43,615 nucleotides of DNA, from positions 1 through 43,615 of the forward strand of contig JALAIB010000034.1 of NCBI GenBank assembly GCA_023645945.1, in the 5' to 3' direction. A program made the translations under genes and the position numbers. This DNA is from Diploschistes diacapsis (lineage: Eukaryota). Positions 1 to 40,981 of the stretch are shown piece after piece (position 1 is the first letter of the stretch; every line of letters starts with the position of its first letter). A model generated the notes under the pieces. The model searched no databases and was not told the origin of the DNA. It saw only the letters and a program-made list of their open reading frames with translations.

Positions 1-200
1 AAGTTATTGAGATTTCTAAATATTACCCTAAATTCCATAAGCAGGGGTGTGGAGATGCAATCCCCACAAATAAAAAAAAGCAGGGGTTTGGGGGTGCAAC
101 CCCCAATAAACCTACCCAGTTTTTTAAGCCTAGATTTTTTACTTAATACTTACTGCTTCGCTTAGGAACTTAAAAGGCGACATCATGTTGTCGCCAGACA
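1..200. repeat. AT-rich degenerate repeat or mobile-element end with tandem hairpin units
   Basis: Two imperfect direct copies (39-74 and 78-110) of AAGCAGGGGT-stem-TGCAA-stem-AATAAA, plus the inverted repeat GGCGACA..TGTCGCC (176-195). TpA-rich context at the window edge. Confidence 0.5.
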
Positions 201-5110: not shown

Positions 5111-5327
5111 GAGGTTTGAAGCTGGTTTGAGCCCAAGATCAGAGAATCAAGATTGATAAGTTTGGTGACAAAGGCGCTTGCTGTACGCTACGCTAGGCCG
5201 CAACTTCTGACATGTAGCCTTGATCCTCACTCACCCGCCATCGAGCATGAAACGGCAGTAAGAACTCTCTCCCTTACAAGCCAGATCTGCACAGACATCA
5301 CACACTCTCCTGGGTTCTGCGGCCACC

Positions 5328-6635
5328 ATGGACCTATTGACGTTTCAGTTGCGTAGTGAGATCGCCTCACTCAGAATCCAGCTAGCGGCGGCTTTCAAGG
5401 AGAAGGCAACCGCGGAGCAGTCACTGCTGTATGTGGTGAAACTGCTGGCTGGAAACTCATTGGAGCCGCGATGCTGCTCACATAGTCTCGGCCATGGCGA
5501 AGACCCAATCCCAGTCGCTGAAGAACGGCACGATGCTCCCACCAAGGACGCCGTCGATATCGCTCCAGAAGGTGAGTCAGCAGATCGTCACCTTGAACAT
5601 GGCATCCTCGATGCGCCGCCTAGACTAGACTTGCCAATCCGGGGACTTAGAACTGCGCACGACGGAGAGTCCGAGCTGCTTGGCCCTTTGCTTTCCCTAG
5701 CGCCAAGTACGCAGCCCACAACCGACGCCATTCATTACGCTTCGTTCGCGTCAAACCGGCAGTCTCCTACTGAATCGTTCAGTACCCCTAGCTTTCGATC
5801 CAACGAGTCTGGCCAGGTTTCAGGTCTCGACGGTGCAGTTCCACCTCCTCGCCGCATTGCTACGAGGCAGCTCCAATTGCACGGTACCGCAAATCAACTG
5901 TCCTGGTACCGCGACCGTGCGCTTCCCACCTACTTCATCCACGGTCTTCAGTACAAAGTCCTCTGTGCCCCCCAGTGGGCTTTTCGCTGCGTTGTACTCA
6001 CCGGTCTGCCCTCCAAAGTAAATGTGTCGGGTCTTCTTAGCAAGATTCGTGGTGCAACGGTAGTTTCTTGTCGGCTCATGGACACGACTCGAATCACGAA
6101 CAAATCCAGTGCTTTACTGAGGTTCAAAGACGAATCGGAAGTACAGGATTTTGTTCGGCACACCGCAAAGCATCCTTTGGTGTTCTTTGGACATACGGCC
6201 AGGACTGCACTCATTCAGAAGCCCTCCTATCCTTTATCCGAAATTTTGCACTACAAGATCTTTTTCGAAGACTACACGCGGTGCTTGAAGATTGCCAGGT
6301 ACGCGGAAATCAACAGCCGCAAGGTTCCTGAAGCATGCCTGCGGTCGAAGATCTGGGCAAGTGTTGCGGTTGCACAAACCATACTTGGCCCGGATGGAGC
6401 ACTCTCCATTGATTTCACATCGATCCAGCAGGCGAGCAATGCCTATGATTATCTTCTGGAGTGTGGCGTACCCATAGCCGACTTATCATTCGCACCTGAC
6501 CCTTGCGCTCAGCCATTTCGGAAGCACTCCGGCTCCTTTGAGGAGGTCTTGGCAGAACAAGGGTTTGATGCAGGAATGAGCTCAGAGGATAGTAAGAAAA
6601 CACCCGAGGGCAGCGAAGATTCTGCGGCTGAGTAA
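5328..6635 (+). CDS. Fungal RRM-like nucleic-acid-binding protein
   Basis: 435-aa single ORF with an N-terminal coiled coil and two degenerate RRM-like units (RCVVLTGLP..IRGATVVS..SALLRF; TRCLKI..SIDFTSIQQA..FAPDPC). Confidence 0.7.
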   Translation: MDLLTFQLRSEIASLRIQLAAAFKEKATAEQSLLYVVKLLAGNSLEPRCCSHSLGHGEDPIPVAEERHDAPTKDAVDIAPEGESADRHLEHGILDAPPRLDLPIRGLRTAHDGESELLGPLLSLAPSTQPTTDAIHYASFASNRQSPTESFSTPSFRSNESGQVSGLDGAVPPPRRIATRQLQLHGTANQLSWYRDRALPTYFIHGLQYKVLCAPQWAFRCVVLTGLPSKVNVSGLLSKIRGATVVSCRLMDTTRITNKSSALLRFKDESEVQDFVRHTAKHPLVFFGHTARTALIQKPSYPLSEILHYKIFFEDYTRCLKIARYAEINSRKVPEACLRSKIWASVAVAQTILGPDGALSIDFTSIQQASNAYDYLLECGVPIADLSFAPDPCAQPFRKHSGSFEEVLAEQGFDAGMSSEDSKKTPEGSEDSAAE

Positions 6636-18902: not shown

Positions 18903-19760
18903 ATGCTGTATAATTCTTCCAGCTGCCTGCGGACAGCCACAGTAACTTTTCGGCTCTCTCCATTACAACAAGCTCCGGCATGGAACAGCTCCAAGTGCCT
19001 TACTGTACAAGCTACTGCCAAGCACCAAGCACGACCTCTGTGCACGAGGCTCACTTGCACTCAGAATTCACCCTCACAAACAGCTCCACCTCATATCAAA
19101 TCATTAGATCGCTCCGCTAGCTTACCGAAACCATCAATCACCCGCTTCGTTTCCACTTCTGCTTCCCCATCAGCAACCGCCAATGCAACGGCTGCATCCT
19201 CCACTACCCAATCGTCCCAGTCGCTGACTTGGGATGGCTACCTCTCCCTCCGCCAGAAGCGGCGGTACTACAACATCATTGCATCATCGCTGACTGCACT
19301 TGCCTCATTCACGGGTGGTGCCTCTTTCTTACTCACACAGGATATCGAGAAGATATCCGGATTGATGTTCGGTCTTGATCCATTCATGGGCATGGGCATC
19401 GTGTGCGTCGGATTTGGAGCCACTGGCTGGTTGATTGGACCTTTTGCCGGAGGCTTTGTATTCAGACTTATGCATCGACGGGTTGCGGGGGGCATGCAAA
19501 TTGTTAGTTGACCCGCATTCTCGTCTCGTCTTCTTCCATGCTCTGTGTGGGCTGTTCGTGCTAACAGGCCTTCAATTTCTCAGAAAGAAAGAGATTTGTA
19601 CCAGCGCATAAAGAAATACCGATGCGATCCTACCAGCCAGTCGGTGCAAAATCCTGTTCCAGACTATTACGGCGAGAAGATTTTCTCGGTGAAGGGCTAT
19701 AGGCAGTGGCTGAAGGATCAGAGAGCCTATAGGAAGAAGAGGGAATCCTTGACTGCTTAA
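18903..19760 (+). CDS. PAM17: Mitochondrial presequence translocase-associated motor subunit Pam17
   Basis: Presequence-like N-terminus; LTWDGYLSLR, GLDPF and GWLIGP. After intron 19503-19583: RCDPTSQSVQNPVPDYYGEKI..YRQWLKDQRAY. Confidence 0.95.
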
Positions 19761-20367: not shown

Positions 20368-21125
20368 TCAGGTCGTCAGCTTGACATAGTTCCTCAGAGC
20401 CTTCCATCTGGCCGACAAGTCCGCAGCCTCTTGGGTCTCATGAACCGCAAGTTTCTCTTCTGAGCCAAGTCCCCCCTCCATTCCATCCATACCTACCGCA
20501 TCACCTCCTCTCAATCCCGCCAGCACAGCCAGATTCCTTGCAAACCTTTCCTTCTCCGCACTTTCCACCTTCGCCCTCTTTTTCATGGCGCCGGGCCTAC
20601 TCCGCAGGCTCTTGCTCGGTCTGGAGACACGAACCTTGACTCCATCTATATCCACCGTCCTGGTTGCACCAGCAGCCGCTCCCCCACCCGTTCCTCCGTT
20701 CCTGGCGCCAGCAGCCGCCTCTCCTTCGCCCGGGTCGGTGGAAGTCGGCAATGCATCCGCAAGCGAGGACATGGTGGAGAGCAGCTTCTCACTTTTGGCC
20801 TTGCTTTCGATGCCGTTCTTCCCCGTTCGCCGGCGCCGGAGCCGCTTGGCGATCCCGCTCGAGCCAGCTCGGGTTTTGCCCAGGCGAGTTAGGAGCGCGT
20901 GATGCTTCTTCGGGCGCCTGCGCTCCTTCGTGCCGCGCGTGGCTGCCGTTTGCCGAGCGAGCGGGAAGATGCTGGTGCTCGGGTCTGGCGCACGAGAGGC
21001 TCTTGCTGTGGCTGTCGATCCGGAGGCGGAAGCGCGCGCTCGGATCGAGCTGCGCTTGCGGAAAGGTGCCTACCGCGATGGTTAGCTGGGCGCGTTTTAG
21101 ATGCCTGGAAGAACAGATATACCAT
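20368..21125 (-). CDS. SLX9: Ribosome biogenesis protein Slx9 family
   Basis: ATG-only coding exon 1 (21123-21125); intron 21070-21122 (GTATAT..GCTAAC..TAG). Exon 2 gives MAPFRKRSS..KKHHALL..SSLADALP..SRPGAMKKR..EKERFARNL..RWKALRNYV. Confidence 0.8.
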
Positions 21126-26220: not shown

Positions 26221-27243
26221 CTAACTCTCCTCACCGACGCTCCTTTGAGGCACGGGCGGATAATCAAAAAGGTCTTCCAAATACGCGCTTGGAGCCCGTC
26301 CATCACTTTTTGCTCCCAAGCTCGCAGTGCTCAATCCTGCCATACTCGATCTTCCATACGGCATATCCGCTGGCGTACTAGCAGGGTTCAATAAAGGACT
26401 CGGACCTGGGCTGATTCCGCCAACCGATAATGGACGCGAGAACCTTGTAGAGCTTTGTGGTCGGTAACCAGTTTGTGGTCGACTGCTCGAGCCATTTGTG
26501 AAATCGAGCATGGAGATTGGCCGACCGTCGCCTGCAACACCGCCTCCGTAACCACTGTTACCAGCCGCGTAATAGCCCGATGGCAGATATGTGGAACCGC
26601 GATTACCAGCTGCACTCGACCGTCCAGCAGTAGCGGTTGTATTAGCCGTTGGCGAAAAGAACAGACTCGATCTGTTTGCTGGTGTGTTGTAACCCAAGTC
26701 CTTTTTTCCACTTCCTGTCAAAGGATCCAAGCTCAATTCACTCCCACGACCGTAGGAATAGAAGGGAGCATTGGGCTTCTTGAACACGCTCGCACCCTCC
26801 GCACCGAGCTTCTGAAGCTTTGTAAAAGCAGAATATGGTCCCCTTCCAGCATTTGCGCGCTTGATGTTCCGGTAAATGTTCCACGATATGAGCCCACGCC
26901 AGGCTAAGACAATGAGAAAGAAGAATCCGATGATAGCACCGGCACAGATGAAAACAAAGTTGTTGGGAAGGGGCGATGTTTGCATGTACGGGGCCATTTG
27001 TGTCGGAGGAACAGATGGGGAGGGAATCGGGATGCTAGTGCTGATAGCTGGAAAGGAAATTGAAGGTTTTGCAGACGATCCTGAAGTTGTTCCTGCGGCA
27101 GAAGAGCTGTCGGTCGACGACGGACCTGCCGTTGTCGTTGTCGAGTCTGAAAGCGCTGGGAAGGATTGTGAGGGTTGTTGGGCGGAAACGGTGGTAAAGA
27201 GGAAGGCAGCAGCTAATAATGCTTGTCGTAATCGCGGCAGCAT
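26221..27243 (-). CDS. CSI2/PRM5-like single-pass membrane protein
   Basis: Signal peptide and S/T stalk, then VPPTQMAPYM..P..VFICAGAIIG TM, SLFFSPTA, YLPSGYY and RAPSAYLEDLF. Confidence 0.82.
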   Translation of the reverse strand: MLPRLRQALLAAAFLFTTVSAQQPSQSFPALSDSTTTTAGPSSTDSSSAAGTTSGSSAKPSISFPAISTSIPIPSPSVPPTQMAPYMQTSPLPNNFVFICAGAIIGFFFLIVLAWRGLISWNIYRNIKRANAGRGPYSAFTKLQKLGAEGASVFKKPNAPFYSYGRGSELSLDPLTGSGKKDLGYNTPANRSSLFFSPTANTTATAGRSSAAGNRGSTYLPSGYYAAGNSGYGGGVAGDGRPISMLDFTNGSSSRPQTGYRPQSSTRFSRPLSVGGISPGPSPLLNPASTPADMPYGRSSMAGLSTASLGAKSDGRAPSAYLEDLFDYPPVPQRSVGEES

Positions 27244-28280
27244 TTTGGAAATTGATCAAGGCTTTCGATGCCGAGCTACTGAGGTCTATGCCTAGGTCGT
27301 ACAAGGTTTGCTGCGAGTATCCGCTATCGTGTACGTGGATGCAAGGCTGGATGTGCAAGGAAACTTGAATCGTGTTTGAGGGCCGTCTTCCAGAAGAATC
27401 TGCTGAAGTAACCTGGTAGTTTAAGTGAAAAAAGAGGACAACGACCAGCCAAAGGATGTACAAAAGAAGGACAAGTAACAAAAACATTCGTCAAAAAAGC
27501 AACCTCATGGAATGTACAGTGTGGCACTTCGCAACGCCTCTCTCCCAGGTCGCTCGTAAAGGGATGAGGGCGTGATCACTTAGTGCGGCCCGGCATCTTT
27601 GTTTAGTAGAAATGATCACTGGCAGGGATTACTTACTGCTGTCGGAGATATGGAGATATGGAGATACGAGGTAACATCGTTAATCTATAAAGCCGGCGCT
27701 ATGACCGATAAAGTTCCGATTGCGTTCTGGGCACCCTGAGTGATTCGGTTATGCATTTATCTGCACAGCAAAAGCATTGTACGCTACCAAACAGCCGCTC
27801 ATACCCCGGCAGGCCTTCAAGATTATGAAACCGGCTTCTTTAGGTTACCAAAAACTGACGTACCGCTCGCATTTGTAAAGACATCTATCACAGAGCCATG
27901 TGTAGTCGCTGGCCTCGAGCGTTAGGGTACCCGCCTGGAACAGTATACTATACTAATATTCTACCCAAATGTCTTGGAGACTTGTGTTGATAGATAGTAT
28001 AGTTCACAGCGGATTTTAACTGAGCTTTCGAAGCTCGTCCAAGCTCGTCCTCCTGATCTTGACAATGAGCATGACAGTTGAATCTTATGTAGACCCAGTT
28101 GCTGTGACTGTTTTACGCCCAATAATCAATTTTTGAACCCTAAGCGAGATCACTAGCCACGTTCCGAGAAGCTGAAAAGATTGCACCTGGAGTTTCTCTA
28201 CCTCACGGTCTTAAATTGCCCATAATTTCCTTAATCAGGATCAAATCGAACTTCGGGTACTGCGCTGCCTTTTGTACAAG

Positions 28281-29099
28281 ATGGGTGTTCAAAAAAGGAC
28301 CAGGAAGTTTGCCCAGGTAAAACGCATAATTGGGCAGAGGGACGCAAGATTGTATGAGTAACCAAAAAATACTTTACATTGAATGAACTTGCTGATTCGT
28401 CTTAGAAAGAAGAACCAACAAAAGCAAGAGCAGAAAAGCAAGAAGCAAGCCGAAGGGGGCGAAATCGTGCGACATGTGTAAGCAGTCTACTTCCCCTGTA
28501 GGCACGATAGAAGGCCATCAGAACTTAACTCTTTCTACAGACCACAGGTCTCCTCGGCCATGTTCTTCCAGTACAATACCGCGCTTAAACCGCCTTACAA
28601 CGTCCTGGTCCGCTCTTTCTCTTCGCTTTCTCTCACCCTTTGCCCTCCACTTTCCGCTGCTGACCCGACCCCAGGTTGACACGAATTTTATCAATTTTAG
28701 TGTTCAGAATAAGCTAGAATTACTGACCACTATGATGAACTGCCTTTACGCCACTTGCAACCCAATAATTACTGACTGCGTTATGGCGGAATTGGAGACT
28801 CTGGGCCGAAGTTATAGAATTGCCCTGCAAATAGCAAGGGATGAGCGGTGGGAGCGAATGAAGTGCGATCATTCAGGAAACTATGCGGATGATTGGAAAG
28901 TCTCCGATCCAATTTCATGTCGTTTGCTAACTGGATGATCAGTATAGTCGATAGAGTTATCAAGAATCCGGTGTATTTGGTAGCTACGAACGATAGGGAC
29001 TTAAAGCGACGCATTCGGAAAGTACCTGGAGTTCCGATTATGAGTGTTGCCAAGGGCAGATATGTTATTGAAAGACTGCCCGACGCGCCGGAGAAGTAA
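28281..29099 (+). CDS. FCF1: rRNA-processing PIN-domain nuclease Fcf1/Utp24
   Basis: MGVQKRTRKFAQVKR, FQYNTAL.PPY.VLVDTNFINF, ITDCVMAELE, YADDC, VATND..LKRRIRKVPGVP and ERLPDAP. Introns 28352-28405, 28478-28540, 28608-28674 and 28896-28942 (the last is GA-AG). Confidence 0.95.
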
Positions 29100-29320
29100 G
29101 GAACTCTAAGAAACATCATGCATGCATATGGGGCCCGAACAAGAGAAAGAGAGAGAGAGAGCTATGTGATTCAAAAATGCAAGATGCAGCTTAGAAAGCG
29201 CAAGATACCCTCGACCCACCGAGCCAATAGTCCGTTGCCTTCAACCCACTCCAGAACTCCGATAACATTTACAGATGCTGAAGTCATCGCTATACGTACA
29301 ACATTTACGAGCTCTATCTA

Positions 29321-30435: not shown

Positions 30436-30660
30436 GATTTCTGATGCCTGGCTTTGTGCGTTCTGGATGTTGAATTAGGAAAGATAACCTGTCTCTCCTT
30501 GACGTCTACTAGGTAGGCTTGGCACATCATGATGGAGAAACGCTACGCCACACGCCGCAAGCTTCAGCCACAACTTCTATAACTTTATTTCGCACGACCT
30601 GAAAATCATAATGAAGCGTTACACCACTCTAATTCCATCCTCCATCTACGCCTTTTTGCC

Positions 30661-31380
30661 ATGGGGTCAAGCTCATTGAAGCGCAAGCGTGCAGCTCAGC
30701 CTGAGGAGATTACTTTCGATTTCGCTGCACGCCAGGACTACCTTACGGGCTTTCATAAGAGAAAACTACAGCGAGCAAAGCACGCCCAGGAAGATGCGGC
30801 AAAGAAGGAGCGCGAGGAACGAATCAGGGCAAGAAAGACAGTACGTGCGAGATCTACGCGGTAGGCGGATTTCACTAAGTTTCTTTGCTAGTTACGTGAG
30901 GAGAGGCAGGCACGGCTGGAAAAGCACATTGAAGCTGTTAACGGAATGACTGGGAAGATTGGTAGATCTTCAGAAGATGAGGCTAGCGAAGAGGGAGAAT
31001 ACAACAGTATCGAATGGCAAGGCTCTGAGCAGCCTGCTATTGTGGATCGTGAAGATGAATTTGTTGATGAGGACCGTCATACTACGGTCACGGTAGAAGC
31101 TGTGGATGTAACTCGGCACGGTCTCGAGAGGGTGCCACGGGAGGACGAAGAGGACGCTAGCGAGGATGAGGATCAGAACGGTCGAGACGCCAACAGAAAG
31201 GCCTCGATGCAGCCTGTGGAAAAGGCCAAACGCATTTGGACAAAGGAGAATCCTCATTCAGGCAAGAAGAAGAAGCGGAAGAAATTCCATTATGAAAGTA
31301 AGAAAGACCGCAAAGTTACGCAAATACAGCAGAGAAAGGGCAATCGAGAGAAGGCAAGGTCGAGGAGGCAGCAAACCTAG
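30661..31380 (+). CDS. RRP17: Ribosomal RNA-processing protein Rrp17/NOL12
   Basis: EITFD..ARQDYLTGFHKRKLQR; intron 30841-30891; TTVTVE and KKKRKKFHYESK. Confidence 0.93.
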
Positions 31381-32189: not shown

Positions 32190-32570
32190 GATTGCGATGT
32201 GGAAGTGGGGAGTTTTAGGTTCGAGGATCCGAAGAAGGCAGAGAAGGAGGAGAGTCGTTTGATCTCTCTAAGGTATGGGCAGCTGTATAATTCGAAGTAT
32301 GTCGTTTCCAGCGAGCTGATTGTTGGCGTTGCTGGGTGGATGTGCGTTGTCGGACCGTTGCGGCAAGGGTGGGATATGGGGGGGGTCTCTTTGATCCGCG
32401 GGGGCAGGGTCTTTGAGCATGATTGGCGAATCCTACCCCAAGCAACCGCTAACCAGCTAAGAGTAAACATTCGCTTATTTCAACTTTCTAAACCTTCATC
32501 AGCTCCGATAAAGGTATCTTAAACCTTGAAGCCATCAAGCGTTACAAAACCAATTCACAAACGCTTCATC

Positions 32571-34025
32571 ATGGCCAGTATTCTGGCTCTTCGGGATCAA
32601 GAAAACTTGCACCACGCACACCAGACAACAGCCGCCGCAAAACCGCTTAATCAAGGAAGCAGGGCGCTTGCTCCGAAAACGCCAGGTAACAGAGTTGCAA
32701 AGACTCCTTTTAAGCTCCCGTTGAACGACGAGAATGGTATTGATGCAGCAAAAGCAGGCTTGGGAAAGGGTAAGGTCAATGGGAGTCTATTCACCGGGGC
32801 CAGTAAGGCATTCGGAGAAAGGAACGCTTTTGTCACACCTGTCGCTCCAAAGACGCGAGCTCCCCTCGGGCAAAAGACGACCAATGCAAAAGCAAGGCCG
32901 TTCCAAACCCCTGCGCCACTCCAAGAAGATACTGTTCTAGACAAATTGAAGCCAAAGAGTGTATCAGTGCGAAAGCCGAAACCCAAGACTTCTCACGCCG
33001 AACCCGTCAAAATTGATGTGCTCGATACAAGAGATGAAGAAGAACCGGAAATCGAGTACATGCCACCGCGACCGAAGGATCTACCCGATCTCCCCGATGA
33101 TATAGACGCGAATCTGGACTTCTCCATGTTCGCAAACAATGGGGCGCGACGCGACTTCATCCATCACCTCAATCACCACAAGGGCTGGGATGGACTGAGT
33201 GCGGTAGAGCGGGACGAGATCAGAGCCAAGAGGGCCGAAGAAAGAATAAATGCGGAAAACGAGGCGTTCGCAGATTATATTATGGACGGCGATCCTATTC
33301 CTTGCCTTCACGACCCAGAATGCCCGACACAGGACTGCAAGGACGCACCAGCAATCAGGCGTGAAGCCAAGGCCAAGTACGAGCAAAAGCTAGCGGAAAT
33401 AGACGAGCACTTCAAGTCTCTCCCCCCTCTGGGGCTCGATTACCTCGCGAAGCAGCCATCTGCAAAGAAACAAATCAACATCACGAAGGGGCCAACGGAC
33501 GAAGTTTCCAAGCGAGCCGCATTTACTTTGTCAATGCCCAAACCGAAAGTTCCTGGTCCAGCGAAAGCTTCAGCCAAGAAGCCCTTTTCCTCTCAAGTGC
33601 CTTCCGCGCTCGTCTCACGGCCCAAAAAGCCAACTCACCCACCAACGAATCCCTCCACGATGCGCCACGCGGCCGCAGTGGCAGCTTCTCATACAACGAT
33701 GGGTTACTCCAAAGGTCGCGCTACCTCTGCATCACTCCGCAAAGCCCAAGGTCCCACACAGGCGGGGAATGTCTCAAGTAGGAAAGAAATTAGACCGGAT
33801 CCAAACAGTCTCTCTCCGGCAGACTTCATGAAGCAATACGGTGAGCCGAGGTTCATGACGGAGATGTGGATCAGGTGCAGGAGCCAGGGACTGATCAAAC
33901 TACCTGGCGACGAGGACAAGGTGGAGCAGCAGGAGTCTGCCATGGGAGGCCCAGATGGGCTGGCGGCGGATGACTATTTCAGGGAAGAAGCGGAGCGGGA
34001 CTTCGAGTTCAAGATGCCGTTCTAG
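32571..34025 (+). CDS. Probable securin (separase inhibitor)
   Basis: Disordered protein with an N-terminal RDQEN, D-box RAPLGQKTTN and a separase pseudo-substrate-like EPEIEYMPPRP motif. ATG at 32571. Confidence 0.7.
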   Translation: MASILALRDQENLHHAHQTTAAAKPLNQGSRALAPKTPGNRVAKTPFKLPLNDENGIDAAKAGLGKGKVNGSLFTGASKAFGERNAFVTPVAPKTRAPLGQKTTNAKARPFQTPAPLQEDTVLDKLKPKSVSVRKPKPKTSHAEPVKIDVLDTRDEEEPEIEYMPPRPKDLPDLPDDIDANLDFSMFANNGARRDFIHHLNHHKGWDGLSAVERDEIRAKRAEERINAENEAFADYIMDGDPIPCLHDPECPTQDCKDAPAIRREAKAKYEQKLAEIDEHFKSLPPLGLDYLAKQPSAKKQINITKGPTDEVSKRAAFTLSMPKPKVPGPAKASAKKPFSSQVPSALVSRPKKPTHPPTNPSTMRHAAAVAASHTTMGYSKGRATSASLRKAQGPTQAGNVSSRKEIRPDPNSLSPADFMKQYGEPRFMTEMWIRCRSQGLIKLPGDEDKVEQQESAMGGPDGLAADDYFREEAERDFEFKMPF

Positions 34026-39793: not shown

Positions 39794-40981
39794 ATGTTGG
39801 TAAGATCAGCTTTGCGTACCGCACGCTCGGCTGGCCGCGCGAAGACCGCAGCACAAGCGGCCAAGGTAGCTACGACATCACGGCTGTTCCCAACCTGCAC
39901 TGTATTGACATCTGATTGCAGCGCTTTTTGTCCAACAATGCATCGTCAGCTTCTTCGCAAGCTTCGATGATAGCTACTGCCTGCGCTACGGCTGCTGTCG
40001 CGACCGGATCAATTGGATGGTTCTACTACGCTTTCGGGAACGAACTATATGCCATGACGCCTCAAGAAGAAGGGTAGGCAGCATCTTGAGCGCATCAGTA
40101 GGTTCTCGACAGAGACTAAAGGACCTCATATAGCCTTCACCCAACGCAATACCCTTGGGAACATACGAAATGGACAAAAACATTTGACCACCAGGGGTAA
40201 TGCCGATCTCGCATTGCACGAAGGTGTCAACTTACAGTTCACTAGTCTTCGTCGAGGCTTTCAAGTTTATCGTGAAGTCTGTTCATCCTGTCATTCTCTC
40301 GGTCGAGTTCCGTGGCGTAGCTTTGTCGGCGCTCTCCATACAGTCGATGAGATGAAGGCCATGGCAGAAGAAAACGAGTATGAGGGGGAACCAGATGACC
40401 AGGGCGAAACAACTAAACGGCCAGGCAAGCTGTCCGACTACATGCCTGCGCCGTACAAGAATGATGAAGCAGCGCGTGCCGCCAACAACGGAGCTCTGCC
40501 ACCAGATCTAAGTCTAATGGTCAAGGCTCGACATGGGGGTTGCGACTACATTTTCTCTTTATTGACTGGATATCCCGAAGAGCCGCCAGCAGGCGCTATG
40601 GTACAGTCTGGTCTCAACTTTAACCCGTATTTCCCCGGCACTGGTGGGCTCCATTCGTTGTTCCTTCCATTGGATGTTTCGTTAACCTTCTTTGCAGGCA
40701 TAGCCATGGCACGTGTATTGTACGATGGACTTGTCGAGTACGAGGATGGCACACCGGCTACTACGTCTCAAATGGCCAAGGATGTTGTGGAATTCCTTAA
40801 CTGGTCAGCTGAGCCTGAGATGGACGACCGTAAGAAGATGGGTATGAAGGTGTTGCTTATCACTTCAGTTCTTTTCGGCTTGAGCATTTGGGTTAAAAAA
40901 TACAAGTGGTCGAACATCAAGACGCGGAAACTGGTTTACGACCCTCCGGTCAACAAACCCGCAGGGCCACTGCAACGCTGA
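39794..40981 (+). CDS. CYT1: Cytochrome c1, mitochondrial
   Basis: Bipartite presequence; GLHPTQYPW, heme motif CSSCH, PPDLSL, IAMARVL and a C-terminal TM. Introns 39866-39921, 40074-40133, 40197-40245 and 40644-40697. Confidence 0.97.

Follow-up and report, generated by a model that had tools for sequence, protein, structure and literature searches.

We propose that the FCF1/UTP24 gene in the stretch of DNA analysed here (the window, 43,615 nt in full) carries an intron with GA-AG termini, and that this intron, at 28896-28942, would be genuinely spliced as a U2-type intron, often enough to provide functional Fcf1/Utp24. On the sequence evidence set out below, we give this reading a probability of roughly 0.7. 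A GA-AG intron inside the ADDC motif had been pointed out in a preliminary description of the same DNA, and its coordinates, the GAAAGT donor, the GCTAAC and CAG motifs and the length of 47 nt were all confirmed in the sequence.

The gene is, judged by homology, a member of the Fcf1/Utp24 family of PIN-domain pre-rRNA endonucleases and is colinear with it over the full length. This identity, already given in the preliminary description, is borne out by matches to the Pfam Fcf1 family (PF04900), by homologous proteins and by solved Utp24/FCF1 chains. In the available text of two studies, Fcf1/Utp24 is an essential endonuclease acting at the pre-18S rRNA sites A1 and A2, which is known for yeast and human only (PMC4914098, PMC5895043). 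Translation of the five-exon model (Table 1) gives a spliced coding sequence of 588 nt, that is 195 aa and a stop, with zero internal stops or frameshifts; 195 aa is also the usual length among named lichen-fungus Fcf1 proteins. Exon 4 (28675-28893) matches profile positions 1-52 of PF04900 at 50.5 bits and exon 5 (28944-29096) matches positions 55-99 at 45 bits, each above the curated cut-off of 21.4 bits. According to the available part of the structural study, the S. pombe protein has Cys103, Cys132, His134 and Cys142 as zinc ligands and Asp70, Glu107, Asp140 and Asp159 as catalytic acids (PMC5895043). With residue numbering mapped through chain 5yz4_A (10-82 for exon 4, 84-131 for exon 5), exon 4 carries the equivalents of Asp70, Glu107, Asp140, Cys103, Cys132 and His134, and its residues D2, C35, E39, C64, H66 and D72 occupy alignment columns that are invariant, the window included. 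The first D of YADD corresponds to Asp140, and the D of VATND, in exon 5, to Asp159, the fourth catalytic Asp. Once the GA-AG segment is removed, the predicted protein has all four acidic residues and all four zinc ligands of the Fcf1/Utp24 of the 90S pre-ribosome, and differs from it only by lineage-specific substitutions such as INFS after DTNF. This INFS, encoded within 28675-28700, is found in human and yeast, whereas LSHT stands there in 105 of the 121 retrieved homologues, which are mostly from filamentous ascomycetes. Other ribosome-biogenesis genes recognised by Pfam lie within 11 kb of one another and of FCF1 (28281-29099, plus strand), namely SLX9 (20371-21069, minus strand) and Nop25/Nop12 (30583-31377, plus strand), an arrangement that may be due to chance. 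Long open reading frames (ORFs) with no Pfam match at E <= 0.001 are present at 5262-6632 (plus strand, 457 aa), 26224-27255 (minus strand, 344 aa) and 32523-34022 (plus strand, 500 aa).

Table 1. FCF1 gene model, signals of intron 4 and junctions used for comparison (window positions, except for the last row, which gives positions in the loci named).
Feature	Position	Strand	Description
FCF1/UTP24 gene	28281-29099	+	ATG to TAA; five exons, four introns, 195 aa
FCF1 exon 1	28281-28351	+	exon model
FCF1 intron 1	28352-28405	+	54 nt, GTATGA...CTGAT...TAG
FCF1 exon 2	28406-28477	+	exon model
FCF1 intron 2	28478-28540	+	63 nt, GTAAGC...TTAAC...CAG
FCF1 exon 3	28541-28607	+	exon model
FCF1 intron 3	28608-28674	+	67 nt, weak donor GTCCGC...CTGAC...CAG
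FCF1 exon 4	28675-28895	+	VDTNF...YADD and TG of Cys codon
FCF1 intron 4	28896-28942	+	47 nt, phase 2, GA-AG termini
FCF1 exon 5	28943-29099	+	T of Cys codon, then IVDRVIKNPVYLVATND...LPDAPEK, TAA
Intron 4 donor hexamer GAAAGT	28896-28901	+	GTAAGT with A at +2; exon G at -1 (ttgGAAAGT)
Intron 4 branch-site motif GCTAAC	28926-28931	+	branch A 28930, 12 nt before acceptor
Intron 4 acceptor CAG	28940-28942	+	sequence reading
FCF1 introns 1-3			GT-AG, homology-constrained
PNGase A (two), ThiF/Uba4 and Nop25 junctions			GT-AG, homology-constrained
Pam17 intron	19503-19583		81 nt, phase 0, GTTAGT...GCTAAC...CAG
Cytochrome c1 introns	40074-40133, 40197-40245		GT-AG
Intron of loci L016 and L019	1722-1776 in each		TG/GTGTGT...CTGAC...TATAG/C; L016 and L019 near-identical

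The joint between exons 4 and 5 is closely constrained by the protein. Exon 4 ends with ...TAT GCG GAT GAT TG, its last base at 28895, and exon 5 starts at 28943 with T ATA GTC GAT AGA GTT; the codon split between them, TG/T, encodes the zinc-ligand Cys (S. pombe Cys142). When both exons are placed on solved chains, they are separated by exactly one residue (5jpq_d, 60-132 and 134-183; 5yz4_A, 10-82 and 84-131; 7mq8_SL, 71-143 and 145-191), and this single residue is the Cys of TG/T. Excision of 28896-28942 does restore YADDC-IVDRV, as had been claimed, in an open 195-aa frame. Since G28895 equals G28942, an intron with GG...CA termini at 28895-28941 would give an identical mRNA; no shift of the boundaries yields GT. 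Outside +2 the donor is consensus, and it is accompanied by a branch motif, a YAG acceptor and a fungal-type length, the other introns of the window measuring 46-81 nt and containing CTRAY-like motifs. The earlier judgement that branch point and acceptor are strong also held, with CTAAC 12 nt from the intron end and CAG at the end itself. These signals are not due to chance, because five of the six donor positions agree with GTAAGT at the one joint that the protein requires and CTAAC lies 12 nt before CAG.

U12-type introns have a donor of the form /RTATCCTT and a branch site like TCCTTAAC; the donor GAAAGTCT and the branch region TTGCTAACTGG of intron 4 match neither motif, and a U12-type assignment was rejected. 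A-to-I RNA editing at +2 was rejected by reasoning, since it would give GI, which is read as GG and not as GU. Elsewhere in the 43.6-kb window, sequence matches to introns 1-4 do not exceed 14 nt, so that the near-identical copies expected of an introner-like element are absent there; the four introns show no notable structure.

All in-frame GT, GC and GA excisions ending in AG, as well as AT excisions ending in AG or AC, were enumerated near intron 4, and each product was scored with a profile built from 117 full-length homologues. Of all enumerated isoforms, the GA-AG form ranked first, at 366.2 bits, and retention of the intron scored 258.8 bits. The preliminary description had stated that retention stops early, which translation confirms: the retained reading ends ...YADDWKVSDPISCRLLTG and meets a stop codon at 28936-28938, 161 nt short of the normal one. 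The protein is thereby destroyed, as retention costs both a zinc ligand and a catalytic Asp, the Cys142 codon being split and Asp159 lying in exon 5. The sole protein recorded for the contig is the read-through ORF with this same end.

How could such a donor be used? We propose that the +2 mismatch is offset by consensus bases at -1, +1 and +3 to +6, by the CTAAC branch site and by the CAG acceptor. The U1 and U6 snRNAs might still recognise the site through the G on either side of the junction (-1 and +1) and the AAGT that follows at +3 to +6. With the conserved U1 5' end, the donor of intron 4 can form six pairs around a single A mismatch, and its potential pairs outnumber those of any of the GTATGA, GTAAGC and GTCCGC donors of FCF1. 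The bases that U6 would read, +4 to +6, are consensus at the GA donor. In classical mutagenesis of yeast and mammalian introns, a U-to-A change at +2 permits the first splicing step and blocks exon ligation, which counts against splicing at GA. The second splicing step, at which such mutants fail, should be favoured by the shortness of the intron, by a perfect CTAAC close to its end (12 nt) and by the CAG acceptor. The available text of a splicing survey in human cells also raises the possibility that U1 is recruited to a non-canonical site nearby by a GT at +5/+6 (PMC6280755).

A special case of a real GA-AG intron, raised in the preliminary description, is conceivable though unlikely: intron 4 may act as a rheostat on ribosome biogenesis, with inefficient splicing throttling FCF1 output and retained transcripts, bearing the early stop, being degraded by NMD. 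In its favour, U1 pairs less well when +2 is A, the protein can be made through the GA site alone, retention leads straight into the stop codon at 28936-28938, and intron 3 of FCF1 also has a weak donor, GTCCGC. Against this idea, every signal of intron 4 apart from +2, in the donor as well as at the branch site and the acceptor, is optimal, which suggests compensation rather than tuning. In addition, a natural GA allele of the Trema SYMRK gene is reported as fully functional in the available text (PMC10668435).

The preliminary description had called for a comparison with other Pezizomycotina to see whether the GA donor is conserved at this position. This comparison was run, and the GA donor was not conserved: 78 of 80 related metagenome loci have an uninterrupted Cys codon (TGY) and no intron there, and the other two, L016 and L019, contain a GT-AG intron of 55 nt that shares the codon and phase of intron 4. 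Their intron indicates that the position is bona fide, though rare. Thus the one other lineage with this intron position among the 80 loci uses GT, and the +2 A of the window probably stems from a T-to-A change in an intron that this other fungal lineage has, with GT, at the same place. L016 and L019 represent a lichen-type fungus whose Fcf1 is ~94% identical to the Lasallia and Umbilicaria proteins. The presence of an intron in the zinc-ligand Cys codon of these two loci, and its absence from other lichen-fungus loci, make the position polymorphic among lichen-type fungi. A search of 213 proteins for ORFs ending ...ADDW, a sign of the same intron, found the window's own ORF only. As regards the other introns, many related loci are, like the window at intron 2, interrupted just before PQVSS. 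The position of intron 3, between L and VDTNF, is uninterrupted in 79 of the 80 related loci; L031 is interrupted 6 nt downstream. Because introns 3 and 4 are both rare among relatives, the FCF1 of this lineage can be said to have two rare intron positions.

The protein itself is distant from those known. Among named proteins, those that match exon 4 best come from lichen-forming Lecanoromycetes (Loxospora, 82%; Lepraria, 79%). The core of the window Fcf1 does not exceed 82% identity to any homologue, whereas lichen-fungus Fcf1s are 93-99% identical among themselves. The cytochrome c1 of the window has 75-81% identity to named fungi of several classes. Because cytochrome c1 is also distant, we read the Fcf1 divergence mainly as a lineage effect and not as decay; judged from these two proteins, the window probably comes from a lineage without close sequenced relatives.

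Three different studies provided contigs that were aligned to the window at 80% likeness: a lichen metagenome (X1, the probable source of the window), a run with a coded organism label (X2) and a rock metagenome (X3). The X2 contig covers 28618-29131 at a word depth of 99.2 and has 9 differences and no gaps. Eight of the 9 differences are listed, none of them at 28896-28901; the ninth lies near a contig end, because only differences away from contig ends are listed. The X3 contig (28659-29024, depth 5.3) has 6 differences, all located outside 28896-28901, and its intron 4 is identical. A contig from a further dataset, X4, spans 28901-29051 and is silent on 28897; X5 and X6 shared almost no sampled words with the window and were left out of the contig comparison. 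The six runs listed in a search for this DNA (X1-X6) include no RNA run. The X2 and X3 haplotypes are 1.6-1.8% diverged from the window. GA at 28896-28897 is real DNA in three distinct haplotypes, as seen in assembled contigs, which drop rare variants and could hide a minority T allele.

The differences among these haplotypes bear on whether the gene is still functional. Eight of the 11 coding site/allele differences among X1-X4 are synonymous (P(>=8 of 11) = 4e-4 for a synonymous-site fraction of 0.215), in a test of 11 events only, to which exon 5 contributes 2 events at one variable site. That site, 28946, is four bases into exon 5 and has three alleles, each of them an Ile codon: the window reads ATA, X4 reads ATT, and both X2 and X3 read ATC. 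The three nonsynonymous differences, Q33H, T88N and T89S, all fall in variable positions. Listed indels among the haplotypes occur in introns 1 and 3 only, X2 having 4 substitutions and 2 indels in intron 1. The median identity to 73 full-length homologues is 0.824 for exon 5 versus 0.767 for exon 4. The synonymous excess, the restriction of indels to introns and the conservation of exon 5 at the level of exon 4 argue that FCF1 is under purifying selection while carrying GA; for the same reasons, the pattern of a disabled copy is absent. At 28616-28617, X2 has two short contig variants of different depth, distinguished by single-base deletions in the intron 3 pyrimidine tract, which suggests a length polymorphism within the sample. 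A (GA)n microsatellite occupies 29133-29168 in the 3' flank of FCF1, and the X2 and X3 contigs break there.

These observations can be set against the possibility that the gene is a young pseudogene, in which a T-to-A change at the donor disabled the copy and another FCF1 elsewhere supplies the function. We consider this improbable. The donor is indeed GTAAGT with one change, the protein stands unusually far from other lichen-fungus Fcf1s, and a paralogue below 80% nucleotide identity would escape the contig comparison. However, GA is common to three haplotypes whose coding differences nonetheless show the synonymous excess, the 588 nt have accumulated neither frameshift nor stop, and exon 5, which would be untranslated in a disabled copy, is at least as conserved as exon 4. 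The divergence is matched by that of cytochrome c1 in the same window. Moreover, a close second copy of FCF1 is absent from the X1 and X2 assemblies at 80% likeness, where one X1 contig and only X2 contigs of at least 95% identity match.

A different question is whether GA in FCF1 is isolated. The window could come from a lichen-associated ascomycete lineage whose spliceosome tolerates A at +2 at appreciable frequency, which on our analysis would be a rather remote prospect. Among homology-constrained junctions in the window, 10 are GT-AG and one, FCF1 intron 4, is GA-AG; the GT-AG solution for Pam17 fell outside the coordinate-bounded search because the Pfam alignment runs into the intron. 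This proportion of one in 11 constrained junctions is compatible with a frequency of well under 1% and with one of up to tens of percent. A de novo census that joined long ORFs, with the donor dinucleotide left free, found GT no more often than other pairs and was uninformative; a second census, with the pattern GNRNGY, counted distinct donors of GT 14, GG 13, GA 8 and GC 6, a spread no better than noise. The window gave no matches in Rfam and tRNA scans and thus no snRNA gene. In the copepod Eurytemora affinis, GA and GG together make up ~12% of introns, and several percent in Oikopleura, according to the available text of the sources; in the window, by contrast, 10 of 11 constrained junctions are GT-AG. 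The literature covered reports no fungal lineage with percent-level GA donors.

Still less probable is a main product made from canonical sites. Excision of 28900-28964, in frame and with GT-AG termini, would give a protein of 189 aa reading YADDWK/NPVY, in which CIVDRVI is removed and W inserted. This form scores 338.0 bits, 28 below the GA-AG form, and it loses the invariant zinc-ligand Cys, which follows YADD in all 118 homologues with a readable motif; the sole W at this place belongs to the window's own read-through ORF. The excised segment would have to encode C-IVDRVIK in frame by accident; IVDRV follows the Cys in 46 homologues. Its signals are poor as well, with the donor GTCTCC and a branch site 34 nt from a weak AAG acceptor. 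The best GT-AG alternative by score, a 38-nt excision at 28919-28956, reaches 343.5 bits, 23 lower than the GA-AG form, and inserts unrelated residues. Joining the GT at 28900 to the acceptor of intron 4 reads TAT AGT CGA TAG, with the stop as the fourth codon, in agreement with the frameshift and stop noted earlier. Finally, an error of assembly, as the preliminary description had considered, or of sequencing, with A written at 28897 for a true GT, deserves almost no credence: the donor is one base off consensus and the window probably stems from the X1 sample, but the contigs of two other studies, from different haplotypes, show no difference there.

Brackenridge et al. (2003, EMBO J 22:1620) reportedly refer in their title to GA as a 'dead-end' splice site. 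The U2-type GA donors of vertebrate FGFR1-3 are efficiently used, as stated in the available portions of papers that cite this work (PMC6280755, PMC5714493, PMC7072748). Those sites are alternative and, by the same partial accounts, are said to depend on a canonical GT six nucleotides upstream, whereas the FCF1 GA would be the only productive site and GT is absent from the 10 bases upstream of it. In an RNA-seq study of Fusarium graminearum, GA-AG is named among the 0.31% 'other' donor-acceptor pairs of 2604 introns inspected (PMC3577648, available text). As F. graminearum is a filamentous ascomycete, this listing implies that ascomycete spliceosomes can use GA.

One close parallel is in a plant. 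Intron 12 of SYMRK in Trema orientalis is a GA-AG intron, and GA-AG introns make up ~0.01% of annotated plant introns, according to the accessible part of the report (PMC10668435). As in FCF1, a single natural GA donor sits in an otherwise canonical conserved gene and is required for the full-length protein, and it is read as a one-base change of an existing donor. In Trema, on the other hand, the GA allele derives from a GC donor and is polymorphic within a single population; SYMRK function was shown experimentally, whereas that of FCF1 is inferred from selection. In Eurytemora and Oikopleura, too, conserved proteins depend on constitutive GA donors for their full length, and those of the copepod are mostly in lineage-specific intron positions, much as the position of FCF1 intron 4 is rare; both likenesses are drawn from partial texts. 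No report of GA-AG in lichens or in FCF1/Utp24 was found in a limited literature collection. GA-AG introns are therefore rare but already documented, and FCF1 is a further example, one that does not open a new class of mechanism.

For annotation, the practical consequence is that gene callers limited to GT and GC donors will truncate or mis-model FCF1 here. For the biology of the gene, the placement of the intron leaves little room for error, as it splits a zinc-ligand Cys codon beside a catalytic Asp and any mis-splicing kills the enzyme. If splicing is confirmed, a filamentous ascomycete would be using a naturally occurring and apparently constitutive GA 5' splice site in FCF1, a gene that is essential and probably present in a single copy. 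The site would then offer a clean natural test, in fungi, of how much the rest of a donor can compensate for a change at +2.
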